In this document: positions 29,664 to 62,990 of the stretch, one piece after another
How the letters are laid out: the number at the start of each line of letters is the position of its first letter
Position numbering within the stretch: the first letter of the stretch is position 1
Virus record (IMG/VR): IMGVR_UViG_3300022555_000017
Coordinates: 1-64,000 of that record
DNA from: a virus
Taxonomy: Duplodnaviria; Heunggongvirae; Uroviricota; Caudoviricetes
Length of the DNA stretch: 64,000 bases
Direction: 5' to 3' (one strand)
Program-made: the position numbers and the translations under genes
Notes under the pieces: generated by a model
The model's input: the letters and a program-made list of their open reading frames with translations, nothing else
What the model was told of the DNA's origin: nothing
The model's database searches: none

Positions 29664-30542
29664 ATGATTGGTAAAAAATTAAATTATATAGAAGTTAAAC
29701 AATATATTGAAAGTTTTGATTATAAACTTTTATCAACAAATTATATAAATGCTTTAACAAAATTAGAATTACAATGTCCGAAAGATCATATATATTTTGG
29801 TGTATATGGTAATTTTCAACAAGGTATTAGATGCCCGGAATGCTCAGGTCTAAAAAGGAAAACTTTAAGAGGCGTAAAAGAATATATTGAAAGTTTTGGG
29901 TATGAATTATTATCCACTGAATATAAAAATAGTAAAGAAAAATTAGAATTACAATGTCCTAAAAAACATATATTTAAAATGAGTTATGTTTGTTTTCAAA
30001 GAGGGCAAAGATGCCCCGAATGCGATAAATCTAAAAAACTTACATTAAATAAAGTTAAACAATATATAGAAAATTTTGAATATAAACTTTTATCAACAGA
30101 GTATGTAAATAGTAAAACTAAATTAGAACTACAATGCCCTGAAAGTCATATTTATAATGTAATATACAATTCATTTCAGCAAGGTCAAAGATGCCCTAGT
30201 TGTGCTTCAGTTAAAGGATGGTCTAAACCTGAAAAGGAAATTGCTGAATATATTAAACAAAACTATATTGGTGAAGTTATGGAAAATGATAGAACACAAG
30301 TAAAGAACTATTGGTCGGGTAAAAATTTAGAATTAGACATATTTTTACCTGAATTAAATAAAGCTGTTGAATATAATGGTGAGTACTGGCATAATAATGA
30401 TAAATCAAGATGGTATGATGAAATGAAAAAGAAGCAATGTAAACAAAAAAATATAAATTTATTGGTTATACAAGAACAAGATTGGTATGATAATAAACCA
30501 TACTGTCTTAACAAAATAAATAACTTCATTGTAAATTTATGA
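29664..30542 (+). CDS. Zn-ribbon-repeat (x3) plus Vsr/DUF559-like nuclease family protein
   Basis: Family motifs; directly followed by another member. Confidence 0.7.
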   Translation: MIGKKLNYIEVKQYIESFDYKLLSTNYINALTKLELQCPKDHIYFGVYGNFQQGIRCPECSGLKRKTLRGVKEYIESFGYELLSTEYKNSKEKLELQCPKKHIFKMSYVCFQRGQRCPECDKSKKLTLNKVKQYIENFEYKLLSTEYVNSKTKLELQCPESHIYNVIYNSFQQGQRCPSCASVKGWSKPEKEIAEYIKQNYIGEVMENDRTQVKNYWSGKNLELDIFLPELNKAVEYNGEYWHNNDKSRWYDEMKKKQCKQKNINLLVIQEQDWYDNKPYCLNKINNFIVNL

Positions 30543-30597
30543 GATTGACTTTTCATCATGGTTGTGGTATAATAAATTAAAAAGTAAGAAAAGGAAT

Positions 30598-31479
30598 ATG
30601 CAAAAATTATCATATAATGAAATTAGAAAATATATAGAAAGTTTTAATTATAAATGGCTATCTGGTGAATATAAAGATAATAAATCCAAATTAAATATTC
30701 AATGCCCAGAAGAGCATATTTACAAGGCATCATATAATAGTTTTCATAGAGGACGCAGATGCCCTAAATGTTTTGGAACTCATAAAAAATCTAATGAAGA
30801 AGTCAAAAGTTATATAGAAAGTTTCAACTATAAACTTCTATCTACTGAATACAAAAATAGTAAAGAAAAATTAGAACTACAATGCCCAAAAGGTCATATT
30901 TATTTTGCAAGTTATGATGATTTTCAACAAGAACATAGATGCCCTGAATGTGCAAATAAAATGAAGGGAGATAGTCAACGATTAGAAATTAATAATGTGA
31001 AAGAATATATAGAGGGTTTTGGATATAAACTTTTATCAACAGAATATAAAAATGTTTTATCTAATTTGAGATTGGAATGTTTAAATGGTCATAAATTTTT
31101 AATGAGATATAATAGTTTTCAACAGGGACAACGATGCCCTAAATGTTCGTATATTGACAAAAGTTCAAAACCTGAAAAAGAAATTGCTAAATATGTTAAA
31201 ACTATTTATTCTGGTAAAATGATTGAAAACGACAGGACACAAGTAAAAAACTATTGGTCTAGTCGTAATTTAGAACTTGATATATTTTTACCTGAATTAT
31301 CTAAAGCAATTGAATTTAATGGTATATATTGGCATTCAAATGATAAAACGATGTGGTGTGATGAAATGAAGAAAAAACAATGCATACAAAAGGGTATTGA
31401 TTTATTTGTAATAGATGAAAAACATTGGCGTGATGATAAGGTATGTTGTTTAAGTAATATAACGAAATTTATAATGTAG
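30598..31479 (+). CDS. Zn-ribbon-repeat (x3) plus Vsr/DUF559-like nuclease family protein (ORF opens at 30562)
   Basis: Family motifs; tandem with 29664-30542. Confidence 0.7.
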   Translation: MQKLSYNEIRKYIESFNYKWLSGEYKDNKSKLNIQCPEEHIYKASYNSFHRGRRCPKCFGTHKKSNEEVKSYIESFNYKLLSTEYKNSKEKLELQCPKGHIYFASYDDFQQEHRCPECANKMKGDSQRLEINNVKEYIEGFGYKLLSTEYKNVLSNLRLECLNGHKFLMRYNSFQQGQRCPKCSYIDKSSKPEKEIAKYVKTIYSGKMIENDRTQVKNYWSSRNLELDIFLPELSKAIEFNGIYWHSNDKTMWCDEMKKKQCIQKGIDLFVIDEKHWRDDKVCCLSNITKFIM

Positions 31480-33182: not shown

Positions 33183-33878
33183 ATGCCTGCAAAATTAATT
33201 TATACAAATATTAAAAACTATATTGAAGATTTTAATTATAAACTTTTATCAACTGAATATGTAAATAATAAAGAAATATTAAAATTAAAATGCCCTCAGA
33301 ACCATTTATTTAATATGTCTTTTCATACTTTTAAAGATAATGGAAATAGATGCTTTGAATGTAGTGGGAAAAAAAGAAATATATTAAATGTGGTTAAAAA
33401 CTATATTGAAGATTTTAATTATAAACTTTTATCTACCAGTTATATAAAAGCTTTAGATAAATTGAAATTACAATGCCCTAAAGGCCATATATTTGAAATG
33501 CGATATAATGATTTTCAACAAGGCCATAGATGTCCAGAGTGTTCATTGGTATTAGGATGGTCTAAAGCTGAAAAGGAAATTGTTGAATATGTTAAAAGTA
33601 TATATTCTGGTAATATAATAGAAAATGATAGAACGGTATGTAAAAACTATTGGTCTGGAAAAAATCTCGAACTTGATATATATTTACCAGAAATACAAAA
33701 AGCTATTGAATACAATGGGCGACATTGGCATTCATTTGAACAAAAACAATGGTATGATGAAATGAAGAAAAAGCAATGTATTAAAAAAGGTATTAATTTA
33801 TTAGTCATACAAGAGCAAGATTGGTTAGATAATAAGATGTATCAATTAAATAAAATAAATAAACTAGTAGGAGTATAG
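33183..33878 (+). CDS. Zn-ribbon-repeat (x2) plus Vsr/DUF559-like nuclease family protein, inserted exactly between nrdG and nrdD
   Basis: Starts at the nucleotide after the nrdG stop and ends 5 nt before the nrdD start. Confidence 0.7.
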   Translation: MPAKLIYTNIKNYIEDFNYKLLSTEYVNNKEILKLKCPQNHLFNMSFHTFKDNGNRCFECSGKKRNILNVVKNYIEDFNYKLLSTSYIKALDKLKLQCPKGHIFEMRYNDFQQGHRCPECSLVLGWSKAEKEIVEYVKSIYSGNIIENDRTVCKNYWSGKNLELDIYLPEIQKAIEYNGRHWHSFEQKQWYDEMKKKQCIKKGINLLVIQEQDWLDNKMYQLNKINKLVGV

Positions 33879-39972: not shown

Positions 39973-40613
39973 GTATAAATGTTTTAGTACCGATGGACAA
40001 TGAAAAAATTATAGCAAAAATAGAAAGTCAGTTAGAAACGGATGATACTTTAACAGTATTTAATTTACCTGCATATCCTGCTAGAATTATAGATTCCCTT
40101 TTCTCAAAAACAAAAAATGATAGAATATTATTTATTAGCCCATTTACTTTTGTTATTGCTGATAATTTTATAGAAATGTTTAGAAAAAATGATTTACCTT
40201 TTAATATGTATTTAAGAACATGGGGTGAAGAAATAAATGATTTTGTAAAAGGATCAAAAGGAGATTTCAAATTTAGTGATTCCATATGCTTTTATAAAAA
40301 TAAATATCTGAGAAATTTAACCGATTATTCTAATACTTTATGTTTTGATGATATAATGAAATTATTTATCAAAACATCACATCTAAATATTTATGTACCT
40401 GATACAAGAATAGAAACTTGTAAGGTGATTGAAAAACTTGAAGAGCTTGATGCGATTGATGAAACTAAAGAAATAGTACCTGAAGTGGTAGTTGATGAAC
40501 CTGTACTTAAAAAATCTACGGCTAAAGCTAAAAAGGCATCTGTTAAAACAACTGAAAAGAAAACTGAAGAAGTTAATGTAAAGGAGTGCAATTCTAATAG
40601 CTGGATGGACTAA
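39969..40613 (+). CDS. Hypothetical protein (214 aa) with a K/T/E-rich C-terminal tail
   Basis: ORF; ATGA coupling to the upstream gene. Confidence 0.45.
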   Translation: MSINVLVPMDNEKIIAKIESQLETDDTLTVFNLPAYPARIIDSLFSKTKNDRILFISPFTFVIADNFIEMFRKNDLPFNMYLRTWGEEINDFVKGSKGDFKFSDSICFYKNKYLRNLTDYSNTLCFDDIMKLFIKTSHLNIYVPDTRIETCKVIEKLEELDAIDETKEIVPEVVVDEPVLKKSTAKAKKASVKTTEKKTEEVNVKECNSNSWMD

Positions 40614-41341
40614 TGAAAATTGTTATTTTTTCTTGTGGTTATAACTGTTCTAAATATGTTAAAAATCATTTAGATTCTGTAAAAAATCAGACATTTAAAG
40701 ATTATGTACACATTCTCGTAGATGATTGCTCTGTTGATGGGACATTGGATATAATTTGTCAAAATAGAGACAATAATATGTTTATTCATCGTACAGGTAA
40801 AAATCAAAAATGGATTCAAAATGCAATAAATTTTCTTTCAGTATCAGATGATGATATTGTTATTATATTAGACATGGATGATTGGCTTGCTGATATTCAT
40901 GTCTTTGAAGATATTATAAAAGCATATGAAGAAACAAATTGCTGGATGACATACAGTAAATTCTATTATACATCCAAAAAATCAACATCAGATTGGATAC
41001 CACCATATTCAGAACAAACGCTAAAAGATTCATCATTTAGAAAAAGTATATGGTCATTCACGCATCTCAGAACCTTTAAAGGATTTCTCTGGAATAAACT
41101 CAACAAAGAAGATTTAAAAGATAAAAATGGTAAATATTTCAAGTATGCTTATGACCAAGCTATATTCTTTCCTATGCTTGAAATGTCATCACCAGATAAA
41201 ATCCAAAGAATAGATAAAGTTCAGTATATATACAATGATAACAATCCTTTACAAGTAGAAAAGTTGAATCGTAAAGAGCAAGAAGAAATAGCAAAATGTG
41301 TAAGATCAAAAAAACCATATCAAAGGCTTATAAATGGATAG
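40613..41341 (+). CDS. GT2-family glycosyltransferase
   Basis: IVIFSCGYNCSKYVKNHLDSVKNQTFKDYVHILVDDCSVDGT is a canonical GT-A/GT2 N-terminus. Confidence 0.7.
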   Translation: MKIVIFSCGYNCSKYVKNHLDSVKNQTFKDYVHILVDDCSVDGTLDIICQNRDNNMFIHRTGKNQKWIQNAINFLSVSDDDIVIILDMDDWLADIHVFEDIIKAYEETNCWMTYSKFYYTSKKSTSDWIPPYSEQTLKDSSFRKSIWSFTHLRTFKGFLWNKLNKEDLKDKNGKYFKYAYDQAIFFPMLEMSSPDKIQRIDKVQYIYNDNNPLQVEKLNRKEQEEIAKCVRSKKPYQRLING

Positions 41342-42830
41342 AAGAATATTAATAATAAGTAATCTTTATAACTGTGAAAAGTATGTAGAAAAGCATATAA
41401 AAAGTATATTAAAACAATCATATAGTAACTGGAATCTAATTTTAATAAATGATGGCTGTACTGATAATACTGATAGAGCTGTAAGAAACTATATGCCAAA
41501 ACTTCCTAAAATAGAATATGTTGTTAATGAATCTCAAAAGGGAATGGCATTAAATGTCTATAAAAATGTACTTAAATATACATCTGATGAAAATACTGAT
41601 GATATAATTTATATAATGAATGGTGCTGATTGGCTACCGCATGAGAATGTTTTCAAGCAACTAAATGAACTATATGAAAAGGGTTGTTTAGCAACTTGTG
41701 GCGGATCAATGCTAAGCAATAAAAAAAGATATTTCTATAACTATTTCTATGACGATATTATTAATAAAATGTATAGAAAAGATGGAGAATTTTATAGTCC
41801 TGTAACATTTAACGCAATGTTATTTTATAAATTAAAAACTTATGACTTATTTAAAAATGATTATTCATCAATAGGTTGTTACAAAGAAGCTATTGAATAT
41901 TCCATAATTGATATGGTGCCTAAGGAATCAATATCATTTATTAAAAATGAACCAATATATGTTTTTAATGTTGAATATAATAAAAGAGAAAAATGCGATA
42001 AAGTTGCAAGAGAATATTATAAATCTCTATCATTTAATGAAATAAATGTAGAACATGATAATATAGATGAAGAAGAAATACCTGAAGGTGATAATGTGCA
42101 TTTTATAGTATTCGCATCAGGGTATAATTGTGAAAAATGGATTAATAAACATATTGATAGTATATTGAGCCAGACATATAAAAATTTTACATATATTATT
42201 GTTGATGATCAAACAACAGATGGTACATATAAGAAGATTTGCGAATATAAAGATGAAAGAATAAAAGTATATAGACCACTAGTAAATCAAAAATGGTGTA
42301 AAAATGCGTGGGATTATTTAAGGCCAAATATAGTAAATGATGAAGATGTTGTTGTCGTTGTCGATTTAGATGACTGGCTTTCGCATGATACGGTACTAGA
42401 AAAATTAAATAAAATATACAAAAAAGAACATTGTTGGGTAACTTATGGTAGCCATACAAGAGTTAGTACTGAAAGAGCTAGAACTAATCCTGTATCACAA
42501 ATAATTTTAGATAACAAATTATACAGAAACACAGATTGGGAATACTCACATTTAAAAACATTTAAGGCATTTTTATATTTAAATATAGAAGAAAAAGATT
42601 TTAAATCATCTGATGGTGAATGGTTATTACACACATATGATAAAGCATTAATGTTTCCTATACTTGAAATGTCACCAGCGGATAAGATAAAGCATATAAA
42701 AGAGATATTGTATGTTTATAATAATGAAAATCCGCTAAATGTAGGTAAAGTAAACAGAAAAGATGGTAAAAAAACATATGGTGTATGGTTAAGAGAGCAG
42801 CCAGTATATCCAGAACTAGTGAGGGAATAA
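41334..42830 (+). CDS. Tandem double GT2-family glycosyltransferase (two GT-A domains, 498 aa)
   Basis: ILIISNLYNCEKYVEKHIKSILKQSYSNWNLILINDGCTDNT and HFIVFASGYNCEKWINKHIDSILSQTYKNFTYIIVDDQTTDGT. Confidence 0.7.
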   Translation: MDRRILIISNLYNCEKYVEKHIKSILKQSYSNWNLILINDGCTDNTDRAVRNYMPKLPKIEYVVNESQKGMALNVYKNVLKYTSDENTDDIIYIMNGADWLPHENVFKQLNELYEKGCLATCGGSMLSNKKRYFYNYFYDDIINKMYRKDGEFYSPVTFNAMLFYKLKTYDLFKNDYSSIGCYKEAIEYSIIDMVPKESISFIKNEPIYVFNVEYNKREKCDKVAREYYKSLSFNEINVEHDNIDEEEIPEGDNVHFIVFASGYNCEKWINKHIDSILSQTYKNFTYIIVDDQTTDGTYKKICEYKDERIKVYRPLVNQKWCKNAWDYLRPNIVNDEDVVVVVDLDDWLSHDTVLEKLNKIYKKEHCWVTYGSHTRVSTERARTNPVSQIILDNKLYRNTDWEYSHLKTFKAFLYLNIEEKDFKSSDGEWLLHTYDKALMFPILEMSPADKIKHIKEILYVYNNENPLNVGKVNRKDGKKTYGVWLREQPVYPELVRE

Positions 42831-43768
42831 TGAATATACTTGTTGATGGTGGCGAAGGTCATGTTTTAACTCAAAGAATAACGCCATATTTAAATAAAAT
42901 TGGGCATTCTATTGTTAAATATCCCTCTAACTATGATATACATTTAGCTTTCGTTAGATTTTCATACAATTCTAATGTGCCTAGAATAGTTAGGATTGAT
43001 GGTATATATTACGATACAGATATAAATTATAATAATAGAAATTCTGGTATAAGTATGTCGCATTCATCAGCAAAAGGTATTATTTATCAAAGTGACTTTT
43101 CAAGAATGATGTGCGAAAGATATTTGAGCCCTCGTAAAAAAGATACTATATATTCTATAATTCATAATGGTATTGATCCAATGTGGTGCGGGGAATCAGT
43201 AGAACATAAAGCATTTAATATAGTTGTATCTGCAAAATGGAGGCGTCATAAAAGATTATTAGAAACAATTAATATATTTTTAAAATTTAATAAAATCATA
43301 CCAAATTCTAATCTTCTTATATTGGGTAAATTACATGACAATAAAGAAATTAAACATTCCAACATAAAATACTTTGGTCATTTAGATTATATTCAAATGA
43401 AAGATGTATTCAAATATTCTGATGTATCTATGCACTTATCTAAAAAAGATTCATGCCCAAATACCGTTGTTGAAACAATTGGCGCTGGAATACCAACAAT
43501 AACAACAAATTCATGTGGCGGTGCAGTTGAAATGTGTAAACTAACTGAAGGTTGTATTATTGTAGATGGCGATGGTTCATATTTAGATACTGATCCATGT
43601 AGACCATATAGTGATGAATATAATAAACTATCAAAGGAGGTAGAAGATAATTTAATTGAGGCATTATTAAAAATAGAAAAGGATAAACGACGAGTTATAG
43701 TACCAGAACAATTAACAGCTGAATACACAGCAAATAAATATGTCGAGCTTATAAAAAGTTGTATGTAA
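42830..43768 (+). CDS. GT-B fold (GT4-like) glycosyltransferase (ORF opens at 42785)
   Basis: SCPNTVVETIGAGIPTITTNS resembles the GT4 E..(A)G.P(V/T)I signature. Confidence 0.5.
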   Translation: MNILVDGGEGHVLTQRITPYLNKIGHSIVKYPSNYDIHLAFVRFSYNSNVPRIVRIDGIYYDTDINYNNRNSGISMSHSSAKGIIYQSDFSRMMCERYLSPRKKDTIYSIIHNGIDPMWCGESVEHKAFNIVVSAKWRRHKRLLETINIFLKFNKIIPNSNLLILGKLHDNKEIKHSNIKYFGHLDYIQMKDVFKYSDVSMHLSKKDSCPNTVVETIGAGIPTITTNSCGGAVEMCKLTEGCIIVDGDGSYLDTDPCRPYSDEYNKLSKEVEDNLIEALLKIEKDKRRVIVPEQLTAEYTANKYVELIKSCM

Positions 43769-43827: not shown

Positions 43828-44334
43828 TTGATCTACTTCGCATCAGATTACCATTTCAATCACTCGCAAATTATAGATTATTGTAAAAGACCATTTAAAG
43901 ATGTAGAAGAAATGAACAATACAATAATAGAAAATCATAATAGAATCGTTAAAGATGATGATATAGTAGTCTTTTTAGGAGATTTTTGTTTTAAAGATGG
44001 TATTGAATACCTAAGTAAAATGAAAGGTCATTTTCAACTAATAAAAGGAAATCACGATAGAAGAAATGGTTTACCTTGTTTGTTTAAAAAAGCAATATTC
44101 ACACAGTACAATTATAAAATAATGGTAGCACATGATCCAGACACAGTATTTCCTGGCTTTGATTTATATTTTGTAGGCCATGTTCACGACCATTGGAAGT
44201 TTAAAAGAGTTATAAGAGATAAAAAGAAAATGGATATGATAAATGTATCAGTAGATGTATGGGATTTTAAGCCAGTATCTATTGATCAACTTGTTAATTT
44301 TTATAGAGAATGTAAAACGAATGGGAGAAAATAA
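43828..44334 (+). CDS. Calcineurin-like metallophosphoesterase (TTG start)
   Basis: DYHFNH, GDFCF, GNHD and GHVHDHW metal-binding motifs; aaaggagg RBS. Confidence 0.65.
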   Translation: MIYFASDYHFNHSQIIDYCKRPFKDVEEMNNTIIENHNRIVKDDDIVVFLGDFCFKDGIEYLSKMKGHFQLIKGNHDRRNGLPCLFKKAIFTQYNYKIMVAHDPDTVFPGFDLYFVGHVHDHWKFKRVIRDKKKMDMINVSVDVWDFKPVSIDQLVNFYRECKTNGRK

Positions 44335-44711: not shown

Positions 44712-45677
44712 ATGGATAGATTTATATGGAAAAATGGTGAGATTCTACCTGAATATGAAGCAACAGTGAGTATATATGATTCTGCAATGATGCTTGGCGA
44801 TACAATTTTTACTATGCTCAGAACATTCAATAAAGAATTATACCTCATTGATGAACACCTTGAAAGATTATTTGATAACTTAAAATACGTTAGAATGTCT
44901 ATACCATATGATAAATATGAAATAAAAAATGCACTATATGATGTAATGGATGCCAATAAGTTCAATGATGATGATGAACACAGACTGATGATAAACTGCA
45001 CGCGGGGTTTATTATCACTATATCAAGATGTTGAACACTCTAAAGGCCCTAATGTTATAATTGCCGATTTTCCCTTAAAATGGACGGTAGCAGGAATGGG
45101 AAAGCTATTCGATGAAGGTATCAATATGATAACCCCAAATCAAAGGTCTATCCCTTCTCGTTTGCTTGATGCTAAAGTAAAATGTAGATCAAGATTACAT
45201 TACCTAATGGCTAATATTGAAGTATCACAATATGCAGGTGAAAATAACTGGGCATTATTGTTAGACGAAGATGGATTTGTAGCAGAAGGAACCGGTGATA
45301 ACTTCTTTATTGTTAAAGATAAGATTATATATACACCTGAACCTCGTAATATACTTAGAGGTATTACAAGAAAAAGAATAATGAAAATGGCTCATGTAGT
45401 CGAAAAAAATATTGATATATATGATGTAATGACTGCTGATGAAGCGTTTATTTCAGGTACGCCTTTTGTTGTTCTACCAGTAGTATCATTAAATGGTGTT
45501 AAAATAGGAACAGGTAAAACAAAAGACTATACAGAGTTTTGGTATTTATTATCAAAATGGTGCTGCGAATATGGTGTTAATATTAAAGAGCAAATACAAG
45601 AATGGGATAAAAAATATGTAGAACTACAATCAAGAAAAGGTGCTTCACCATATAAATTTAAGGAGAATAAAATATGA
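44712..45677 (+). CDS. Class IV (BCAT/DAAT-type) PLP aminotransferase
   Basis: FIWKNGEI...EHLERL and LLDEDGFVAEGTGDNFFIVKDKIIYTP align to IlvE (IWFNGE...EHMQRL, MLDVNGYISEGAGENLFEVKDGVLFTP). Confidence 0.75.
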   Translation: MDRFIWKNGEILPEYEATVSIYDSAMMLGDTIFTMLRTFNKELYLIDEHLERLFDNLKYVRMSIPYDKYEIKNALYDVMDANKFNDDDEHRLMINCTRGLLSLYQDVEHSKGPNVIIADFPLKWTVAGMGKLFDEGINMITPNQRSIPSRLLDAKVKCRSRLHYLMANIEVSQYAGENNWALLLDEDGFVAEGTGDNFFIVKDKIIYTPEPRNILRGITRKRIMKMAHVVEKNIDIYDVMTADEAFISGTPFVVLPVVSLNGVKIGTGKTKDYTEFWYLLSKWCCEYGVNIKEQIQEWDKKYVELQSRKGASPYKFKENKI

Positions 45678-46333
45678 AAAATATCTCAGTTGTAATACCC
45701 GCAAGAGGCGGAAGTGTAGGAATACCAAATAAGAATATGATGCTGATAAATAATAGACCATTATTAACATATACTATAGAAAAAGCATTAAATCTAAATG
45801 CTGACAATATTTATGTAAGTACAAATGATGAAGATATAAAAAACTATGTCAATAATAATTATAGAAATATTATTATTGATGATAGACCAGATGAACTAGC
45901 AACAAGTGCATCGACAATGGAAGAACTTATATCGTATATGTTAGGAAAATATAACATGGATATATTAATTCTATTACAACCCACATCACCGCAAATTGAT
46001 GCCGAATATATACATAAAGGTGTTCTTGATGTTTTAAGAGGTTATGATTCAGCACTTAGTATCTATAGAACGGATGAAAATGATGTTTTAATGTGGGATT
46101 TGGATACAAAAATACCTTTAAACTATGATCTAAAAAATCGTGGAAATAGACAGGAAAGAAAAGATAAATATGCTGTTGAAACTGGTGGCTTTTATATTAC
46201 TACTAAAGAACAATTTATAACAAGTAATTGTAGAATAGGTGGTAATATTTCATTCATTGAAATCCCATTTTGGCAATCGTTTGAGATAGATGAAATGATA
46301 GATGCTCTAATGATAGCAAAACTAATGAGGTAA
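45674..46333 (+). CDS. Acylneuraminate cytidylyltransferase family (NeuA/PseF-like CMP-nonulosonic acid synthetase)
   Basis: N-terminal ISVVIPARGGSVGIPNKN is the CTP_transf_3 P-loop-like motif. Confidence 0.6.
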   Translation: MKNISVVIPARGGSVGIPNKNMMLINNRPLLTYTIEKALNLNADNIYVSTNDEDIKNYVNNNYRNIIIDDRPDELATSASTMEELISYMLGKYNMDILILLQPTSPQIDAEYIHKGVLDVLRGYDSALSIYRTDENDVLMWDLDTKIPLNYDLKNRGNRQERKDKYAVETGGFYITTKEQFITSNCRIGGNISFIEIPFWQSFEIDEMIDALMIAKLMR

Positions 46334-46336
46334 AAT

Positions 46337-47134
46337 ATGCTAAATGGTCTTGGATATACGAATGTAGAATTAAGCTCAGTATGTAATAAAAGTTGCTGGA
46401 TGTGTGGAAGGCGTAAAAGAGATAAAGAACAACGTGGCGATGAATATGGATTTATGGAATATGAAACTGCTATAAAAATTGCAAATGAAATACCAGCTGG
46501 AACCATGATTCAGTTGCATAATAATGGTGAAGGTCTTATGCATCCAGAATTTGGTAAGATGTTAAAATTATTTAAACATTGTATAACTAATATTGTATCT
46601 AATGGAAAACTTATACTTAAAAAAGCCGATGAAATAATTGATCATCTTGATATACTTACAATTTCTATCATACAAGGTGATGATGGTGAAGAACAAATAG
46701 ATCAATATACTATATTAAAAAAGTTTTTACTATTAAAAGGTGATAAAAAACCTAATGTTATTTTAAGATTTCTTGGTGATTGTGATGAGAGAACTTATAA
46801 TGATTTTAACTTACTTCATGTAAATAGAGTTTTACATATACCTGATGGAAGTAGAAATTATACTAAAACACCTACCATACCAGAACATGGAGTCTGCACA
46901 GACCTCTTAAATCATCTTGCTATTGATCGTCACGGTGATGTGAGTTGCTGTGTTAGATTTGATCCTAATAGAATGCTTGTATTAGGCAATATAATGTATT
47001 CTTCTTTAGATGAATTATGGAATTGCGAAAAAAGATTAAGTATGATTAAAAAACACATAGAGGGCAAACGATCAGAAGTGCCGTATTGCGGTAATCAATG
47101 CGAGTTCTGGGGCATTGCAACTTCGGGAAAATAA
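46337..47134 (+). CDS. Radical SAM protein with a Cys-rich (SPASM-like) C-terminus
   Basis: CNKSCWMC (CxxxCxxC); C-terminal CC...C...C..C cluster. Confidence 0.55.
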   Translation: MLNGLGYTNVELSSVCNKSCWMCGRRKRDKEQRGDEYGFMEYETAIKIANEIPAGTMIQLHNNGEGLMHPEFGKMLKLFKHCITNIVSNGKLILKKADEIIDHLDILTISIIQGDDGEEQIDQYTILKKFLLLKGDKKPNVILRFLGDCDERTYNDFNLLHVNRVLHIPDGSRNYTKTPTIPEHGVCTDLLNHLAIDRHGDVSCCVRFDPNRMLVLGNIMYSSLDELWNCEKRLSMIKKHIEGKRSEVPYCGNQCEFWGIATSGK

Positions 47135-47887
47135 ATGCATTATAAAATGGCAGATTTTGTAAAATTAAAACAAACTGATACAGTATTTTTAATTGGAAGT
47201 GGATCATCACTAAATGAAATAACAGAGGATCAATGGTCTATAATAAATAGTTATGATAATATGGGTGTAAATAATATATTTTATCACCCATTTTTTATAC
47301 CTAAATCACTTCATTTAGAACTTAAAAAATATGATTGGGGTATTGCAAAAGAAAGACTTGAAGAAAAATGGGAATTGGGTTGGAAAAATGTAAATTATAT
47401 TTTCCCAATCGAAAGATATGCATATATATCAGGTGCTATAGGGCATGAAAAAAAGGCTAAAATTTTTACTTATAGATATGAAAGAAGAGGATTTCATCCT
47501 AAAAAACATCCAGATACAAAAATAGATGCAAATTTTAATCCCGATAAAATTTTATATAAATCATATGATACTAGTGTTTCAACTATTATACAAATGTTAT
47601 ATTTAATGGGGTATAAAAATATAATACTTTGGGGTTTAGATATGAGAGATAGTAAATATTTTTGGACTGATATGGAACCTGAAGTTAGAGGATTAGTTCA
47701 TGATTTATGGAACAAACAAAGAGAAGGAAAAGATAAAAATACACCACATAATGCATCTCATTTACAAGATTATATAACAGATTTTAATGATAAATTTATG
47801 AAGCCAAAAAGAAGAGAGATTTTTGTTGGTCATAAATCAACATTATTATATCCAAAACTACAATATATTGATATAGATAAATTATAA
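47135..47887 (+). CDS. DUF115/MptE-like (Maf-like) domain protein, paralog 1
   Basis: VFLIGSGSSL near the N-terminus resembles the GSGPS motif of DUF115/Maf proteins; paralogous to the next gene. Confidence 0.4.
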   Translation: MHYKMADFVKLKQTDTVFLIGSGSSLNEITEDQWSIINSYDNMGVNNIFYHPFFIPKSLHLELKKYDWGIAKERLEEKWELGWKNVNYIFPIERYAYISGAIGHEKKAKIFTYRYERRGFHPKKHPDTKIDANFNPDKILYKSYDTSVSTIIQMLYLMGYKNIILWGLDMRDSKYFWTDMEPEVRGLVHDLWNKQREGKDKNTPHNASHLQDYITDFNDKFMKPKRREIFVGHKSTLLYPKLQYIDIDKL

Positions 47888-48621
47888 TGCATAATATTAC
47901 AGAACTTCTTAACTATAAAAAAAGTAATATAGCTGTAATTTTAGGCAGTGGATCGTCAATAAATGACATAACAGAACAAGAATGGGAAAAATTAAAAACC
48001 TTTGATCTTTGGGCATTAAATAACTGGGTTTACCATCCTTCAGTAATACCCAATTTTTATCATATAGAAGTTAAACATTATGATGCAGAAATTGTTAAAA
48101 GAAGATTGGAAGAAAAATGGGATAAGTATAAAGATGTTATATATTTAGTGCCTTCTATAAGACAAGATGTAGTAGATGTTATAGGGCATGAAAATGAAGC
48201 TAAAATATTTTATTATGAATATATTAAAAGAAATATATATAAAAATAAAATAAATGCTAATTATAATATAAAAATAAAAGGTATTTTTGTAAGATCATAT
48301 AATACATCATTATCATTATTAATAGATATGTTATATAAATTAAAATATAGATATATTATTTTAGCAGGCGTAGATTTATTGGATTCAAGATATTTTTGGA
48401 CTAATGGCGATCCTAATATATATGGTGAAGTACATCAACAATGGAATAAAGAAATTAGTGGAGGTAAAATTGATGCCCCTCATAAAACTCACCATATTTC
48501 AAATTTCATAATTGATTTTAATAATCAGCATATGAAATCTAAAAAAAGAGAAATATTTTTAATAACTAAAAAATCAAAACTTTATCCAGATTTAAATTGT
48601 ATTAAAATAGAGAATATATGA
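47887..48621 (+). CDS. DUF115/MptE-like (Maf-like) domain protein, paralog 2
   Basis: IAVILGSGSSI...; clearly paralogous to 47135-47887 (EEKW, GHE.EAKIF.Y, YFWT, PKRREIF). Confidence 0.4.
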   Translation: MHNITELLNYKKSNIAVILGSGSSINDITEQEWEKLKTFDLWALNNWVYHPSVIPNFYHIEVKHYDAEIVKRRLEEKWDKYKDVIYLVPSIRQDVVDVIGHENEAKIFYYEYIKRNIYKNKINANYNIKIKGIFVRSYNTSLSLLIDMLYKLKYRYIILAGVDLLDSRYFWTNGDPNIYGEVHQQWNKEISGGKIDAPHKTHHISNFIIDFNNQHMKSKKREIFLITKKSKLYPDLNCIKIENI

Positions 48622-49358
48622 TAGAAAAAAATATAACTATATGCCCCTTATGCCATAGTAAAAGTAATAGAGTAGTGTATAATATAAATTTCACAACATT
48701 ACAATGTAATGATTGTCAATTATATTTTCATAAAAATTATTATACAAAAGAAGAATTATTTAGGTTTTATTCTACAAATTATGGTGTTAGTAGAGGAAAA
48801 AGAGCAAATATAAAAAATCCTGAAAGAATTTTATTTAATGAAAGTAAATATGAATTTTTAAAGGAGAGAAATTGTAGATTAAGATTTATGCCTGTTATAG
48901 ATTCATTTACAGAAAAAAGGAATATACTAGAAATCGGTGCTGATGCAGGTGGCGCTACAAGATATATGATAAAAAGGGGTCATAATGTAGAAGCTGTAGA
49001 ATTATTTAAAGATTATGCTGATAAGCTTACAAAAGAAGGCATTAAAGTTTATAATGATCTATTTGAAAATATTAATTTTAATAAAAAATATGATTTAATT
49101 GTTGCATTAGAAGTGATTGAACACTTTTCAGACCCGTTAAAATGTATAAATAAAATATATAATTTATTAAATACGGATGGTTATTTTATATTTGAAACAC
49201 CTGTAGCAAAAGATGGTTTAGTTGATTCTGCATCATATAGTATAAGACCTTCGCATTATTGTGTATTTAATTCAACTTCTCTAAGTATATTATTAAAAGA
49301 TTTTAAAAATTTACCAAAATTTAATGAAGGCAATGAGGTATATAAAATTAAAAAATGA
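48618..49358 (+). CDS. Class I SAM-dependent methyltransferase with N-terminal Cys4 zinc ribbon
   Basis: CPLCHS...CNDC; LEIGADAGGATRYM (motif I). Confidence 0.55.
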   Translation: MIEKNITICPLCHSKSNRVVYNINFTTLQCNDCQLYFHKNYYTKEELFRFYSTNYGVSRGKRANIKNPERILFNESKYEFLKERNCRLRFMPVIDSFTEKRNILEIGADAGGATRYMIKRGHNVEAVELFKDYADKLTKEGIKVYNDLFENINFNKKYDLIVALEVIEHFSDPLKCINKIYNLLNTDGYFIFETPVAKDGLVDSASYSIRPSHYCVFNSTSLSILLKDFKNLPKFNEGNEVYKIKK

Positions 49359-49663
49359 GTAGATATGAAGATAAAACGATAGAAAAATTATTAGAAGAAC
49401 TTGAAATTGAAGGTGAATTTTTAGATAAAGAGTTAGCAAATATAACAGGAAAAGATAAAATATCACCGGCGGGTGTAGTAAGATCAGTAACAGATGAAGA
49501 AAGAAATACGAAAAAAAGATGGATATGCTCAATTTTAAGAGATATTTATAATCATTCAGATAATGATGATGTAAAAAAATATACAATAGAAGCAGCAATT
49601 CAAGCTAAAAAAATGACAAGAAAATTAGCAGAATATAAAGCAAAGGAATTAAAAAATGAATAA
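49355..49663 (+). CDS. Hypothetical protein (102 aa)
   Basis: ORF, translationally coupled. Confidence 0.4.
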   Translation: MSRYEDKTIEKLLEELEIEGEFLDKELANITGKDKISPAGVVRSVTDEERNTKKRWICSILRDIYNHSDNDDVKKYTIEAAIQAKKMTRKLAEYKAKELKNE

Positions 49664-50228
49664 TATATGTATGTATGGTAGTTATACTGATTATATACCA
49701 TTGCTGAAAGAATATAAAGGTGGTTCTTTTTTAGATGTAGGTGGTAATAATGGTAAAGCAGAAGCATATGCAGAAGGATTTAAATATTTTGTTTTAGAAC
49801 TTTCGCAACCAAAGCATCCACATGAAAATACGATTATAGGGGATATATGTAATTGCCAAGAAATTAAAGATGATTCCTATGATGTAGTATATTCCAATGA
49901 TGTATTTGAGCATCTTTTAGAACCTTGGTCAGCGGCTGAGCACATTATTAGAATATGTAAACCTGGCGGACTAATCATAACAAGTACTGTTTTTTCTTGG
50001 AGATTTCATCCTGTTCCTGTAGATACATTTAGATATACGCATCAAGGACTTGAATATCTTTTTACAAGAACTGGTAAGGTACAAAGTTTAATAAGTAAAT
50101 ATGATATAAGAAAGAGAAGGAAAGATTCAAGAGGTAAAGGTGAATTTGATTTGCCTCCTATTGATGAATTAGGTGGCTGGCGAGAAAATTGGAAAGTACT
50201 ATATGTTTGTAAGAAAAATAAACAATAG
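49656..50228 (+). CDS. Class I SAM-dependent methyltransferase
   Basis: FLDVGGNNGK (motif I), VVYSNDVFEHL, CKPGGLI. Confidence 0.55.
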   Translation: MNNICMYGSYTDYIPLLKEYKGGSFLDVGGNNGKAEAYAEGFKYFVLELSQPKHPHENTIIGDICNCQEIKDDSYDVVYSNDVFEHLLEPWSAAEHIIRICKPGGLIITSTVFSWRFHPVPVDTFRYTHQGLEYLFTRTGKVQSLISKYDIRKRRKDSRGKGEFDLPPIDELGGWRENWKVLYVCKKNKQ

Positions 50229-50237
50229 GAGTAATAT

Positions 50238-51089
50238 ATGAATAATGTGTTATTAGTTGGCGAAATTGGCTTGAATGGAAATGGGGATTTAGAAATAACC
50301 AAAAAACTAATTAATATCTGTCATGCGTTCGGCGTTGACTATGTTAAATTTCAAAAAAGAACATTAGATAAATGTTATACACAAGAAGAACTTAATAAAC
50401 CAAGAGAAAGTCCGTGGGGTACAACAACAAGAGAGCAAAAACAAGGTTTAGAATATAGTAAGGAAGAGTATAATGAAATAGATAAATATTGTAAAATGGT
50501 TGGTATAAAATGGTTTGCATCCGTTTGGGATATAGAATCTGTAAATTTTATTGAAAGTTATGATGTTCCATTTATAAAGATACCATCAGCATTGATCTCA
50601 CACATTGAACTACTGAACTCCGTCAAAAGGTCAGGAATACCTGTTATCATATCAACTGGTATGAGTGAGTGGGAAGAAATTAAAACAGCTATTTCCATTT
50701 TAGGTGATAATCTTAAATATGTTCTACACACAACTTCAAGTTATCCTACCCCTGTTGATGAAATGAATTTAAATAAGATAACAACATTAAAAGATTCAGC
50801 TCCTATTAGTGGTAGCTATAAGATAGGATTTTCAAATCATCACCAAGGAACATTCTTTTGCACAGTTGCAGCAGTTTTGGGTGCTGAGATGATAGAATTT
50901 CATGTAACTTTAGATAGGGCAATGTATGGGTCTGATCAGGCGGCCAGTATTGAGCCAAATGGTATAAGACTTATTGTAGATCACATAAGAGATTTAGATG
51001 TTGCAATGGGTGATGGATATTGGAAAAGGAAAATAGAACCATCAGAAATACCAGTAATAAAAAAATTAAAAAGAAATCTTGACTTTTAA
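50238..51089 (+). CDS. NeuB/PseI-family nonulosonic acid (sialic/pseudaminic/legionaminic) synthase, short form (no obvious SAF domain)
   Basis: N-terminal VGEIGLNGNGDLEITKKLINICHAFGVDYVKFQKR matches the NeuB TIM-barrel N-terminus (IAEIG.NH.G.L..A..LI..A...GADAVKFQ). Confidence 0.6.
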   Translation: MNNVLLVGEIGLNGNGDLEITKKLINICHAFGVDYVKFQKRTLDKCYTQEELNKPRESPWGTTTREQKQGLEYSKEEYNEIDKYCKMVGIKWFASVWDIESVNFIESYDVPFIKIPSALISHIELLNSVKRSGIPVIISTGMSEWEEIKTAISILGDNLKYVLHTTSSYPTPVDEMNLNKITTLKDSAPISGSYKIGFSNHHQGTFFCTVAAVLGAEMIEFHVTLDRAMYGSDQAASIEPNGIRLIVDHIRDLDVAMGDGYWKRKIEPSEIPVIKKLKRNLDF

Positions 51090-51125: not shown

Positions 51126-52037
51126 ATGTTAAATAAAAAATATAATTTAAATACAGTTAGAGAGTATATAGAAAGTTTTAGTTATAAACTTTTATCAACT
51201 GAATATAAAGATAACAAATCTAAATTATTATTACAATGTCCTAAAAATCATATAATAAAATTATCACTTCATAATTTTAAAGAAAATAGATGTTCTATAT
51301 GTTCAAATAAAAAACCTGATTTATATGAAATTAGTAACTATGTTGAAAGTTTCAATTATAAAGTTATATCTACAGAATATACAAATAAAAAAAATAAATT
51401 AAAAATACAATGTTCTGAAGGGCATATTTATGAAAGTAGTTATAACAGTTTTAAAAATGGTATTAGATGCCACTTATGTAAAGATAAAAAACTAAAAAAG
51501 GAAAAATTACACACTAATATTTTATATAATAAAAAGAAAACTTTAAAAGAAGTTAAAGAATATATTGAAAGTTTTGGTTATAATCTTTTATTTACAGAAT
51601 ATATAAATGCTAGGTCTAAATTAAAGTTAAAATGCCCTTCTGAGCATATATATAATGTAAAATGGCCAGATTTTAAAAACAATCATAGATGTCCTGAATG
51701 TGCATCGGTTAAGGGATGGTCTAAGCCAGAAAAAGAAATAGCTGAATATGTTAAAACAATATATTTAAATAATATTATAGAAAATGATAGAACACAAATA
51801 AAGAACTATTGGACAAATAAAAATTTAGAACTGGATATTTGGCTACCAGAAATAAGAAAAGCAATAGAGTTTAATGGTTCTTATTGGCATAATAATGATA
51901 AGTCAAGATGGTATGATGAAATAAAAAAGAAACAATGCATACAAAAAGGTATTGATTTATTAGTTATAAATGAACAAGATTGGTATGATGATAAAAAACT
52001 TCAATTGAATAATATTGGAGGATTTATCAATGTTTGA
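51126..52037 (+). CDS. Zn-ribbon-repeat (x3) plus Vsr/DUF559-like nuclease family protein
   Basis: Family motifs; located at the 3' end of the glycan cluster. Confidence 0.7.
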   Translation: MLNKKYNLNTVREYIESFSYKLLSTEYKDNKSKLLLQCPKNHIIKLSLHNFKENRCSICSNKKPDLYEISNYVESFNYKVISTEYTNKKNKLKIQCSEGHIYESSYNSFKNGIRCHLCKDKKLKKEKLHTNILYNKKKTLKEVKEYIESFGYNLLFTEYINARSKLKLKCPSEHIYNVKWPDFKNNHRCPECASVKGWSKPEKEIAEYVKTIYLNNIIENDRTQIKNYWTNKNLELDIWLPEIRKAIEFNGSYWHNNDKSRWYDEIKKKQCIQKGIDLLVINEQDWYDDKKLQLNNIGGFINV

Positions 52038-52510: not shown

Positions 52511-52696
52511 ATGTTTGAAGATATTTTTGGGGATTTTGACAGACAAGTAGAAAGAATAACTAACATTGATGATGGCGCTGGGCAGGTTCAAGCAGTTGAT
52601 GATGTTTGGAAAACTGATGTTTGGTCTACTGCTGATGAAGTTAATCCAGATTATGTTTGGGGTAGAGTTAATCCAGATTATGTCTGGCGAAGTTGA
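52511..52696 (+). CDS. Hypothetical protein (61 aa) with a duplicated NPDYVWGRV / NPDYVWRS C-terminus from a 27-bp tandem duplication
   Basis: ggagagg RBS; last plus-strand gene before the convergent junction; overlaps the 3' end of the minus-strand gene. Confidence 0.35.
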   Translation: MFEDIFGDFDRQVERITNIDDGAGQVQAVDDVWKTDVWSTADEVNPDYVWGRVNPDYVWRS

Positions 52697-53343
52697 TCTA
52701 AAATAGGTTCAATAAAATCACGATGTATCAGCTTTTTAGTTGAATAAAATTCTTCATTACTACCAGCTGATATATCGTTTTTTGTGCTCATTGCAATAAA
52801 AGAAGTACTAAAGCATAAACCGCCAATATAACCATGCTTATACAGTTTCAAAACCATTGCCCAGTCCGACATTCGATGTATAGTTTCATCAGTTACAAAT
52901 CCACCAACTTCTTCTACTATTTTAGAATCATACATACTGTTGGATGATATATAATTACCTTTTAATAGTTTCTTTATATCATATTCCATTGGAGGAAATT
53001 TTATATTTACATGGCCAGAATATTCAAATGGGCAATACGAAAATGCTAGATGTGATTTTTTGATTACAGAATGGAGTTTATCAAGCATATTTCTACCCAA
53101 AATTATATCCCTATCAATGATCTGAATATAGTTGGGTAGAAAATTGAATTGTTTTTTAAATTGATCTAAACCTGCTTGAACATTGGTTGCGTGTTTACCT
53201 GAACCTTCATATGAAATCCAAGTGAAATCTATATCGTTCTTCTTTATAGATGTTTTGGTTTCACTACTAATCTTATGCCCTGTAAGTAAAGGCGTAAGCA
53301 CCAGAAGTTCTTTTGATTTACTTTCCTTTAAAACATTTAACAT
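52678..53343 (-). CDS. Hypothetical protein (221 aa), possible glycosyltransferase-like
   Basis: ORF. Confidence 0.45.
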   Translation of the reverse strand: MLNVLKESKSKELLVLTPLLTGHKISSETKTSIKKNDIDFTWISYEGSGKHATNVQAGLDQFKKQFNFLPNYIQIIDRDIILGRNMLDKLHSVIKKSHLAFSYCPFEYSGHVNIKFPPMEYDIKKLLKGNYISSNSMYDSKIVEEVGGFVTDETIHRMSDWAMVLKLYKHGYIGGLCFSTSFIAMSTKNDISAGSNEEFYSTKKLIHRDFIEPILDQLRQT

Positions 53344-62021: not shown

Positions 62022-62990
62022 TTATTTAATTTTGCTATATACCTTATACCAATCTACAAATTCCTTTATACCATCTTCTATAGAGAACTTAGGTTCATAC
62101 CCTAACTCTCTTTTAACCATTGTTAAATCTGATAATGATTCAACTATCTCACCTTTAGGTAGATCAACATATTCTCTTTTTGCTTCAATACCAGTAGTTT
62201 TTTCTATTATATCAAGTAGTTCTTTTAGCTGAACCATTTCACCACGACCCAAGTTATATAGTTTATAATCTATTGGCCTTTCAAATGCTAACATGAAACC
62301 ATTAATAATGTCATCTATATAAGTAAAGTCCCTATACATATTTCCATTATTATTTATTACCACTTTAGTACCATTATACACTGCTTTAACCCATTTGTAA
62401 ACTACCATATCTGGACGGCCCCAAGGCCCATAAACTGTAAAAAACCTTAGCCCTGTTGTTTTTATACCGAAATTTTTATTAAAAGCGTATGCTTCCATTT
62501 CATTAAATTTCTTTGTTGCGGCGTATGTATTCAATGGGCGTTCCGTACTATCTGTTTCCTTATAAGGCGGCACTAAATCACCATAAACACTACTACTTGA
62601 CGCATATACAAAGTTCTTTACATTATAATTTTTAGCAGCATTGATTATATTTGTAAACCCATAGCAGTTAGTTAAGATATATGGTTCAGGATTTGTTAAA
62701 GAATACTGAACCCCGGCATATGCTGCTAAGTTGCATACATAGTTGGGCTTTTCTTTCTTAAAAATCCAATCTACATTATCTCTTGATGCTATATCCATTT
62801 CATAGTTCTTAAATGATGGATTTTTTACAATCTGTTTAATCCTTTCTCTCTTTAGCATTGCATCATAATATGTATTAAAGTTATCAACACCAACAACTTT
62901 TACACCTAACTTTAATAGTTTCCTACATAAATGAAACCCTATAAAACCAGCTGAACCTGTTACTAAAACTTTATCATCCTTTTCAAACAT
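62022..62990 (-). CDS. NAD-dependent epimerase/dehydratase (SDR family, nucleotide-sugar 4-epimerase-like)
   Basis: VLVTGSAGFIGFHLCRKLL Rossmann motif and YAASKKFNE-type Y..K catalytic dyad (YAATKKFNE). Confidence 0.7.
   Translation of the reverse strand: MFEKDDKVLVTGSAGFIGFHLCRKLLKLGVKVVGVDNFNTYYDAMLKRERIKQIVKNPSFKNYEMDIASRDNVDWIFKKEKPNYVCNLAAYAGVQYSLTNPEPYILTNCYGFTNIINAAKNYNVKNFVYASSSSVYGDLVPPYKETDSTERPLNTYAATKKFNEMEAYAFNKNFGIKTTGLRFFTVYGPWGRPDMVVYKWVKAVYNGTKVVINNNGNMYRDFTYIDDIINGFMLAFERPIDYKLYNLGRGEMVQLKELLDIIEKTTGIEAKREYVDLPKGEIVESLSDLTMVKRELGYEPKFSIEDGIKEFVDWYKVYSKIK

Follow-up and report, generated by a model that had tools for sequence, protein, structure and literature searches.

What does a radical S-adenosylmethionine (SAM) enzyme do in the sugar gene cluster of a phage, and what do the two related proteins do that are encoded directly after it? 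These questions are raised by positions 46337 to 48621 of a 64,000-nucleotide stretch of DNA (referred to below as the window), which covers positions 1 to 64,000 of the IMG/VR virus record IMGVR_UViG_3300022555_000017 (Caudoviricetes). The locus consists of a radical SAM gene (46337..47134, 265 aa) and the genes of the paralogs A (47135..47887, 250 aa) and B (47887..48621, 244 aa), all on the plus strand. A preliminary description of the same DNA had located the three open reading frames (ORFs) in a sugar island and read them as a radical SAM/SPASM enzyme followed by a tandem duplication of DUF115/Maf-like genes. That interpretation is partly supported by the present analysis. We found that the cassette at about 40.6-51.1 kb is a translationally coupled phage operon with the three genes at its centre, and on balance it probably supplies a cytidine monophosphate (CMP)-activated sugar resembling sialic acid, a non-canonical 3-deoxy-2-ulosonic acid, and attaches it to an acceptor. 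The three genes are real, as indicated by their many homologs, by their coupled junctions and by the reappearance of the A and B arrangement on at least 23 independent contigs from other samples. All junctions from the aminotransferase gene (starting at 44712) to the second methyltransferase gene (ending at 50228) measure -8 to +3 nt, e.g. TAAATG, TAATG and ATGA overlaps, and the genes therefore form a coupled operon.

The first of the three genes encodes a radical SAM enzyme with an auxiliary iron-sulfur domain. Its motif C16-x3-C20-x2-C23 (CNKSCWMC) places it in the radical SAM superfamily, in which CxxxCxxC holds the SAM-cleaving [4Fe-4S] cluster inside a partial TIM-barrel core, and since the spacing is canonical, the objection that it might be incompatible with a radical SAM core falls away. 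The Pfam Radical_SAM model is sub-threshold on the phage protein itself (19.3 vs 29.5 bits), yet it is annotated on most of the homologs, which number more than 1,400 at about 50-70% identity. In an alignment of 18 members sampled from these homologs, the invariant cysteines are C16, C20, C23, C187, C205, C251 and C255, so that the C-terminal part holds exactly four, in the pattern C187-x12-G-x4-C205 plus C251-x3-C255. A full SPASM domain has seven or eight cysteines (CX9-15GX4C ... CX2CX5CX3C ... C) which ligate two auxiliary [4Fe-4S] clusters, while the Twitch domain (BtrN, MoaA and SpeY type) is a shortened form of SPASM that binds one, all four ligands being cysteines in the case of BtrN (PMC9012708). 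The phage protein has no CX2CX5CX3C block and falls outside the anSME/PqqE type of SPASM proteins; the Pfam SPASM model nevertheless passes (33.1 bits vs a cut-off of 21.5), because it also covers the first half-motif that both domains share. The earlier SPASM label is accordingly right as a Pfam match, while the domain is Twitch-like, with four conserved cysteines and, as predicted from them, one cluster, and not of the anSME type.

The closest solved relative is BtrN, a radical SAM dehydrogenase of the Twitch kind whose auxiliary cluster is held by four cysteines (PMC9012708, PMC10337720). When the family profile was compared with the Protein Data Bank (PDB), BtrN was matched across both the core and the C-terminal domain at E 3.3e-15, the next match having 1e-4. 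The cysteines C205, C251 and C255 align with C187, C232 and C235 of BtrN, which is the closest match in structure as well. Together with the cysteine pattern, this assigns the protein to the Twitch class. The similarity is distant, however. BtrN (the 2-deoxy-scyllo-inosamine dehydrogenase of the butirosin pathway; PDB 4M7S/4M7T) is about 20% identical to the phage protein and has C-x2-C as its second cysteine pair where the phage protein has C-x3-C, and dehydrogenase activity of the latter is a prediction. Furthermore, BtrN belongs to 2-deoxystreptamine biosynthesis, of which no genes are present here; the conserved neighbors are instead NeuB, a CMP-transferase and a methyltransferase, which make up an ulosonic acid module. 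With such a different genomic context, the substrate must also differ from that of BtrN. The phage enzyme may thus at most work like BtrN and is not its ortholog.

That this context is no peculiarity of the phage was found by analyzing 80 loci anchored on the radical SAM family in species-representative bacterial and archaeal genomes, with proteins 46-57% identical to that of the phage. They come from Omnitrophota, Lentisphaerota, Planctomycetota, Desulfobacterota, Patescibacteria, Methanoperedens and Woesearchaeota, among others. A NeuB homolog occurs within 10 kb of the radical SAM gene in 70 of the 80 loci, on the same strand in 67 of these 70 and directly adjacent in 25, while 8 of the 10 loci lacking it come from contigs of less than 9 kb. 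In the 40 loci that extend 7 kb or more to either side of the gene (hereafter full-flank loci), NeuB and the CMP-transferase were each found in 39, and a zinc-ribbon methyltransferase like the one in the phage operon in 30; the methyltransferase cluster is represented in 50 of all 80. The associated NeuB proteins are short, about 280 aa, and have no SAF domain. Hence, in anaerobic bacteria and archaea alike, genes of the radical SAM family are hardly ever without a short NeuB and a CMP-transferase as neighbors, and given this linkage in 39 of 40 loci the gene is neither a phage oddity nor an add-on. Based on the cysteine pattern, the profile matches and this context, the enzyme very probably resembles BtrN, is of the Twitch class and serves a NeuB pathway.

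The same data bear on the suggestion that the enzyme is a peptide or protein maturase, of the anSME type or of the type acting on peptides that are made by the ribosome and modified after translation (RiPPs), which would modify an acceptor peptide or protein. A maturase role would be in line with the SPASM match, and maturase models of NCBIfam do give matches, but all of these are far below their cut-offs. The four C-terminal cysteines leave no second auxiliary cluster, and the 265 aa include neither a RiPP recognition element nor a peptide-binding domain. The loci also yielded no small ORF that recurs as a candidate precursor; the near-constant partners of the gene in many phyla are NeuB and the CMP-transferase. 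We regard this explanation as highly improbable, and a full SPASM/anSME-type peptide maturase was rejected on cysteine count and gene context.

If the substrate is a sugar, the third partner of the module indicates what may happen to it. A class III aminotransferase (AT3) was found in 27 of the 80 loci, always together with a glyoxalase/VOC protein (27/27). Seventeen loci have a class IV aminotransferase (AT4), as in the phage, and never together with AT3 or VOC, while a short-chain reductase (adh_short) occurs in 20 loci with a median gap to the radical SAM gene of about 20 nt. Together, the three types account for 63 loci (32 of the 40 full-flank ones), and more than one of them was found in a single locus only, the overlap being between the aminotransferase side and the reductase. 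Their mutual exclusion suggests that a single keto intermediate meets one fate or another, and not that the three act in succession. All three also act on a carbonyl substrate, which is what would be expected if the radical SAM enzyme forms a ketone like BtrN does. We put the chance that it does so at about even, or marginally below.

Other genes recur around the module. B12-binding radical SAM genes, often in one or two copies, lie within 7 kb of it in 34 of the 80 loci (e.g. those numbered L013, L014, L046, L058 and L067), and their products could C-methylate or extend the sugar. In two Methanolobus sp. loci (L006 and L007), the module adjoins an AglB/STT3 oligosaccharyltransferase gene, with split transketolase genes, a transaldolase/FSA gene and a GmhA-type SIS isomerase gene upstream of the radical SAM gene; SIS isomerase genes occur in 18 of the 80 cellular loci. 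This hints at an aldose for the short NeuB that derives from a pentose-phosphate-type sugar phosphate, and at a product ending in N-glycans.

The enzyme could also act on the sugar by another radical reaction, such as epimerization, 1,2-diol dehydration, deamination, decarboxylation or carbon-carbon bond formation, for which we see a lesser though real chance. Models would be dehydration or deamination as in DesII or AprD4, which would give a ketone as well, or decarboxylation as in BlsE. Against this, BtrN is the best match both by structure and by sequence, where it leads the next match by 11 orders of magnitude, and the fully Cys4-ligated cluster pattern is that of the two-electron oxidizers BtrN, anSME and SpeY (PMC9012708). 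Methylation is unlikely, as the protein has no B12 domain and separate B12-binding radical SAM genes exist in the loci described above; a B12-type methylase was rejected for lack of that domain. Of the earlier idea that the enzyme epimerizes, methylates or dehydrates a sugar or an acceptor peptide, the sugar pathway therefore stands, whereas methylation is disfavored relative to a BtrN-like oxidation of an alcohol to a ketone.

In the library searched, no paper described NeuB or nonulosonic acid clusters that include a radical SAM enzyme; there were only coincidences of names. A paper on cyanomyoviruses reports an unrelated radical SAM "maturase" beside AHBA-synthase-like genes (AHBA being 3-amino-5-hydroxybenzoic acid), and does not discuss NeuB (PMC12801897). 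The enzyme indeed lies outside the textbook Neu, Pse and Leg routes, as had been noted before, and its gene marks a widespread way of making ulosonic acids with NeuB that has apparently not been described before.

We then turn to A and B, which are 42% identical (E 2e-67) and both carry the motif GSGSS(L/I)N near the N-terminus. In a relaxed Pfam search their only match was MptE-like (PF01973), with 15.7 bits for A (E 0.014) and 14.5 bits for B (E 0.031) against a cut-off of 34.6 bits, and it covered only the C-terminal end of the model. Neither protein thus belongs to PF01973 by its gathering threshold, whereas both belong to the superfamily by fold. The AlphaFold2 model is one compact domain with a predicted local distance difference test score of 95.4, and according to it A and B are single-domain cores with the Maf/MptE/sialyltransferase fold. 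An exhaustive profile search collected 1,255 cluster representatives at E<=1e-3; in 86 sampled wider relatives, PF01973 was the only recurring Pfam family (36/86). The DUF115 assignment made earlier, which fails the Pfam, NCBIfam and PHROGs thresholds for A and B themselves and is to that extent formally refuted by the condition set for it (failure in profile searches), holds because of the structure and these intermediate sequences alone.

Within this fold, several observations point to the sialyltransferases of family GT42. The broadened paralog profile gave E-values of 1e-4 for Cst-I and 0.006-0.02 for Cst-II, and in hhalign it reached a probability of 91% at the N-terminal motif, where GSGSS(L/I)N...D..N falls on GNGPSLKN...D..N. 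The paralogs accordingly have the N-terminal GxGPS CMP-binding loop and the GT-A-variant fold of GT42. Such signals come from the broad profile: the phage-only profile aligned with the Cst-I fragment at a non-significant 7%, the Pfam model CST-I did not match the phage paralogs, and no significant direct sequence match to the Campylobacter jejuni enzymes Cst-I and Cst-II (or their GT29 fold relatives) came from the phage proteins themselves. The general base of GT42 enzymes is a histidine, His188 in CstII and His202 in CstI, and tyrosines bind the phosphate (PMC4202792). In the paralogs, Y175 is invariant in the phage family, conserved to at least 90% in the wider family and aligned with Cst-II Y162, while H205, also at least 90% conserved in the broad family, lies in a loop and aligns 3-4 residues off the catalytic histidine. 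Catalytic roles for H205 and Y175 are therefore suggestive only. The donor sugar presumably also differs from the N-acetylneuraminic acid of Cst-I and Cst-II.

The fold comparison raises the alternative that A and B are MptE-like pyrophosphokinases, or other nucleotide-binding enzymes acting on a pathway intermediate. MptE is indeed a close match, but Maf and five sialyltransferases rank alongside or above it, and by sequence the broad profile matches GT42 enzymes and not kinases. There are no pterin or thiamin genes nearby, and the co-occurrence with NeuB is strict, in all 15 of 15 viral loci anchored on the paralog family (the radical SAM gene being present in 14 of them). Moreover, one member of the family is fused to a GT-A domain, and a cellular relative sits in a Wzx/Wzy locus. 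A kinase role is consequently quite improbable.

That cellular relative also bears on the more specific proposal that A and B are true Maf flagellin glycosyltransferases with which the phage re-glycosylates host flagellin or pilin, for instance blocking superinfection by flagellotropic phages. In Maf proteins, catalysis resides in the PF01973 core (MmMaf using the acidic residues E324 and D415 and a conserved serine), while flagellin is recognized by flanking domains such as tetratricopeptide repeats (TPRs) or by GlfM (bioRxiv 10.1101/2020.06.03.131540, 10.1101/2023.12.03.569772); one of these or another flanking domain, or the GlfM partner, is required for flagellin binding (bioRxiv 10.1101/2023.12.03.569772). 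The phage proteins share the core fold, and their family-invariant residues D41, E62, S143 and D169 are candidates, though only that, for the Maf residues. At 244-250 aa they amount to a catalytic core, against 632 aa in the solved Maf of M. magneticum (PDB 5MU5), and lack its N- and C-terminal flagellin-binding domains. Among the window ORFs scanned, none was identified as a flagellar gene or as coding for a GlfM-like four-helix protein, so that neither the domain architecture nor the locus is that of a functional Maf. Four glycosyltransferase domains in the operon suggest an oligosaccharide rather than a single sugar on serine or threonine. Some wider members of the family are fused to a GT-A domain, a second core or TPR repeats, and the gene of a typical cellular relative of about 300 aa has a Wzx flippase gene on one side and GT4, Wzy and GT1 genes on the other. 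Such contexts are in keeping with a CMP-ulosonic-acid transferase that modifies a glycan or protein, and do not speak specifically for a flagellin transferase. The Maf-like function on flagellin that had been inferred earlier is thus improbable, and it is likely, judging from the fold model and the profile matches, that the paralogs are CMP-ulosonic-acid transferases.

The relationship between A and B is older than a tandem duplication would suggest. They are true paralogs, as first described, yet in a neighbor-joining tree A groups with the homologs P0002-P0004 (72-77% identity), while B belongs to another clade. There it is joined by the genes that viral loci L092 and L093 carry in single copy and that are 56% identical to B and 48% to A. 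A recent duplication is ruled out by these two old lineages. B retains all 25 invariant columns of the family alignment. Most related phages have one copy, viral loci L096 and L099 have two, and L101, the closest relative of the window, has three in tandem, namely an A-type, a B-type and a third type. Judged from the tree, the pair is an old and maintained combination of distinct lineages found singly in other phages. This fits distinct specificities of A and B, and the earlier reading of two acceptor or donor specificities is a reasonable one. There are precedents: Maf-1 and Maf-2 differ in the serines they modify, and Cst-II forms two linkages.

In the 80 cellular loci the paralog family was found only once, making it a phage-associated minimal branch of the Maf/sialyltransferase fold that is almost phage-only within the sugar module. 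The single case, L010, is a 179 kb contig (JAHQJS010000001.1) of an Asgard metagenome-assembled genome, binned as Candidatus Borrarchaeum weybense. Its cassette is of the phage type, with GT2, a B-like Maf core (E 1e-64), GT4, GT2, CMP-transferase, radical SAM and NeuB genes. Within the 20 kb examined there are no T4 core genes, and the contig may be a misbinned virus or reflect a transfer event.

The remaining genes of the operon, all on the plus strand, confirm the sugar island. Its upstream part encodes a GT2-family glycosyltransferase of 242 aa (40613..41341; Pfam Glycos_transf_2, E 1.9e-16) with homologs in related viral loci, followed by a double GT2 glycosyltransferase of 498 aa (41334..42830), matched in two stretches by Glycos_transf_2 (E 8.9e-33) and at residues 267-362 by Glyco_tranf_2_2. 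A GT4 glycosyltransferase (42830..43768; Glycos_transf_1, E 6.1e-10) is kept in 10 of the 15 viral loci; its likely start is 42830 (312 aa), following the gene call on the identical contig L102. Next is a 168-aa protein resembling calcineurin-like metallophosphoesterases (43828..44334; Metallophos_2, E 8.5e-5, below the cut-off), which may be a weakly supported sugar-phosphate phosphatase and for which no homologs were found in the cellular or other viral loci compared. A small ORF separates it from the gene of the fold type IV, pyridoxal phosphate-dependent aminotransferase AT4 (44712..45677, 321 aa; Aminotran_4, E 2.5e-42). The CMP-ulosonic acid synthetase (45674..46333, 219 aa; CTP_transf_3, E 8.7e-17) directly precedes the radical SAM gene, and its closest NCBIfam model, PseF, is reached at 62 bits, far under the cut-off of 205.7.

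Downstream of B lie a SAM-dependent methyltransferase of 246 aa (MT1) with an N-terminal CxxC...CxxC zinc ribbon (48618..49358; Methyltransf_23, E 9.7e-18), a small conserved protein of 102 aa (49355..49663) matching no Pfam, NCBIfam or PHROGs model, whose homolog in L092 is encoded directly upstream of the B-type gene, and a second SAM-dependent methyltransferase of 190 aa (49656..50228; Methyltransf_23, E 5.1e-12). The last enzyme is a short NeuB-family ulosonic acid synthase of 283 aa that would condense its substrate with phosphoenolpyruvate (PEP) (50238..51089). Its sole domain is Pfam NeuB (PF03102, E 1.5e-65); it has no C-terminal SAF domain and stays under the NCBIfam equivalog cut-offs of both NeuB_NnaB (210.6 vs 399.65 bits) and PseI (149.1 vs 340.25 bits), placing it outside the NeuB/PseI equivalogs. 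In a related T4-like phage (L001/L002, 2513-4364), an element with a serine resolvase and an OrfB_IS605/Cas12f-like TnpB interrupts the homologous sugar cassette, where it parts the CMP-transferase gene from the methyltransferase genes.

With the canonical NeuB/PseI/LegI pathways the operon shares the core of a NeuB-family PEP-condensing synthase and a CTP_transf_3 CMP-transferase, while a radical SAM enzyme, a class IV aminotransferase and a zinc-ribbon methyltransferase take the place of the NeuC, Pse or Leg sets. A pathway can be proposed from these parts, in which the order given for the second to fifth steps is tentative. The short NeuB would first condense an aldose with PEP. The radical SAM enzyme would turn a secondary alcohol of the sugar into a ketone independently of O2, the second electron being removed via the auxiliary cluster as proposed for BtrN, and the class IV aminotransferase would convert the ketone to an amine. 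In other genomes, the class III aminotransferase with its VOC protein would take this role, or else the short-chain reductase, giving an epimer. The two methyltransferases may decorate the sugar, and the CTP_transf_3 enzyme would make the CMP-sugar. Finally, A and B are predicted to be metal-independent, inverting, sialyltransferase-like transferases, with the near-invariant His205 as the probable base, which would place the sugar at two positions or on two acceptors. The acceptor would most likely be a glycan that the adjacent GT2 and GT4 enzymes assemble on a target in the cytoplasm, for example a virion protein. Part of this logic has a counterpart in the Kdo8N pathway of Shewanella, in which the dehydrogenase KdnB and the aminotransferase KdnA act on Kdo, so that a hydroxyl of an ulosonic acid becomes a carbonyl and, by transamination, yields an amino-ulosonic acid. 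KdnB, however, is a metal-dependent alcohol dehydrogenase without homology to the radical SAM enzyme, and the synthase is of the KdsA and not the NeuB type.

Several points weigh against the proposed pathway. The activities of the radical SAM family and of the paralog family are both predicted. No NeuC and no PseB/C/H/G or LegB/C/H/G set is annotated among the operon genes, so that the canonical early steps are missing; gene order gives no indication whether the radical SAM enzyme acts before or after NeuB. Eight of the 40 full-flank loci have none of AT3, AT4 and adh_short, and five have no aminotransferase or reductase of any kind within 7 kb. As to A and B, no Pfam, NCBIfam or PHROGs model matches them at E<=0.01, the phage-only profile found no solved structure by sequence, a Foldseek search with the paralog recovered none of the Maf, MptE and sialyltransferase structures, and the second-best match in the fold comparison, MptE, is a pyrophosphokinase and not a glycosyltransferase. 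The equivalence of their residues to His188/His202 of GT42 or to E324/D415 of Maf is at candidate level only, and no acceptor candidate was identified.

The position of the cassette suggests a different acceptor, namely phage DNA, in which a modified base would be glycosylated with the ulosonic acid or an oligosaccharide, as by the alpha- and beta-glucosyltransferases of T4. The cassette abuts a block of UvsX, gp46 and gp47 genes, and a nucleotide-sugar epimerase gene lies between the gp46-like and gp47-like genes. On the T4 map, the two glucosyltransferase genes likewise lie beside uvsX and gene 47, that for the alpha enzyme next to gene 47. Nevertheless, no hydroxymethylase, thymidylate-synthase-like or other base-modifying gene was present among the ORFs scanned in the 64-kb window, no DNA-binding domain was detected in the paralogs, and the cellular module occurs in surface-glycan contexts such as AglB/STT3 and Wzx. 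DNA hypermodification is hence highly unlikely. No Wzx, Wzy or initiating transferase is encoded in the phage cassette, which weakly favors a cytoplasmic acceptor such as a virion protein. It is rather probable that the sugar is placed on a glycan or protein of the phage or the host, and neither on flagellin nor on DNA.

The surrounding replicon is a T4-like phage with a GC content of about 29%, encoding a UvsX-like recombinase, gp46/gp47-like SbcCD, NrdD, primase, gp32 and RNase H in the window. Comparison with GenBank phage nucleotide sequences gave no close relative, the sole match being 57 nt long. There are no tRNA genes within the window, and a promoter and terminator scan was uninformative in DNA of this composition (119 sites vs 114 expected). 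Interspersed among the T4-like core genes are eight paralogous plus-strand ORFs of about 230-305 aa, all with CapR/DUF4379 treble-clef zinc-finger repeats (9719-10600, 12775-13668, 17848-18735, 22927-23805, 29664-30542, 30562-31479, 33183-33878 and 51126-52037). A sub-threshold C-terminal MTES_1575 restriction endonuclease-like domain was found in five of them, including 12775-13668, 22927-23805, 29664-30542 and 51126-52037. The latter, which lies directly 3' of the NeuB gene at the 3' end of the sugar operon, matches PHROG 559 ("HNH endonuclease") and was the only copy run against PHROGs. Judged by these domains, the set looks like an unusually large homing-endonuclease expansion.

Just beyond the cassette, on the opposite strand, a 221-aa ORF without any Pfam match (52678-53343, minus strand) is strongly conserved in related phages (E ~1e-85 in L001 and L092), always between the cassette and the UvsX block. 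The nucleotide-sugar epimerase/dehydratase mentioned above (62022-62990, minus strand; Pfam Epimerase, E 1.5e-54) may be a source of precursors for the sugar cassette about 11 kb away. Elsewhere outside the cassette, the plus strand carries a tandem amidoligase-like pair (PHROG 33777/7469; 6692-8098 and 8103-9377), a weakly matched extra GT1-like glycosyltransferase (13668-14801), an FkbM-family methyltransferase (25885-26703) and an SPFH/Band-7 protein (20914-21777).

Taken together, these results allow a wider, tentative reading, which as a whole is less likely than not. The radical SAM enzyme, the short NeuB, the CMP-transferase and the zinc-ribbon methyltransferase would constitute an undescribed O2-independent route to a new class of ulosonic acids, finished by an aminotransferase or a reductase to give amino or epimeric variants. 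A BtrN-like dehydrogenase would here replace the nucleotide-sugar dehydratase and aminotransferase logic of the Pse and Leg pathways. The route would be widespread in anaerobes, namely Omnitrophota, Lentisphaerota, Planctomycetota, Desulfobacterota, the candidate phyla radiation, methanogens and Asgard-binned contigs. A T4-like phage lineage would have captured the module and coupled it to phage-specific minimal enzymes of the sialyltransferase fold, in one to three diverged copies, which would cap a virion or host-surface glycan.

Nonulosonic acids, such as sialic, pseudaminic and legionaminic acid, are key surface determinants, and in every route to them known to us, nucleotide-sugar dehydratases and DegT-type aminotransferases act ahead of the NeuB step. 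If many uncultured anaerobes almost always pair a distinct short NeuB with a radical SAM enzyme, this would define a new branch of nonulosonic chemistry. The core of the module comprises only four or five small genes, and different products are to be expected from its AT3, AT4 and reductase variants, which exclude one another. At about 245 aa, A and B are the smallest members of the Maf/GT42 fold in this analysis and possible minimal scaffolds for glyco-engineering with unusual CMP-sugars. Lastly, a T4-like genome that encodes a donor pathway along with two sialyltransferase-like enzymes and four glycosyltransferase domains suggests that the phage directs glycan synthesis. Its target may be the virion or a remodelled host surface, which is relevant to the masking of receptors, to immune recognition and to host range.

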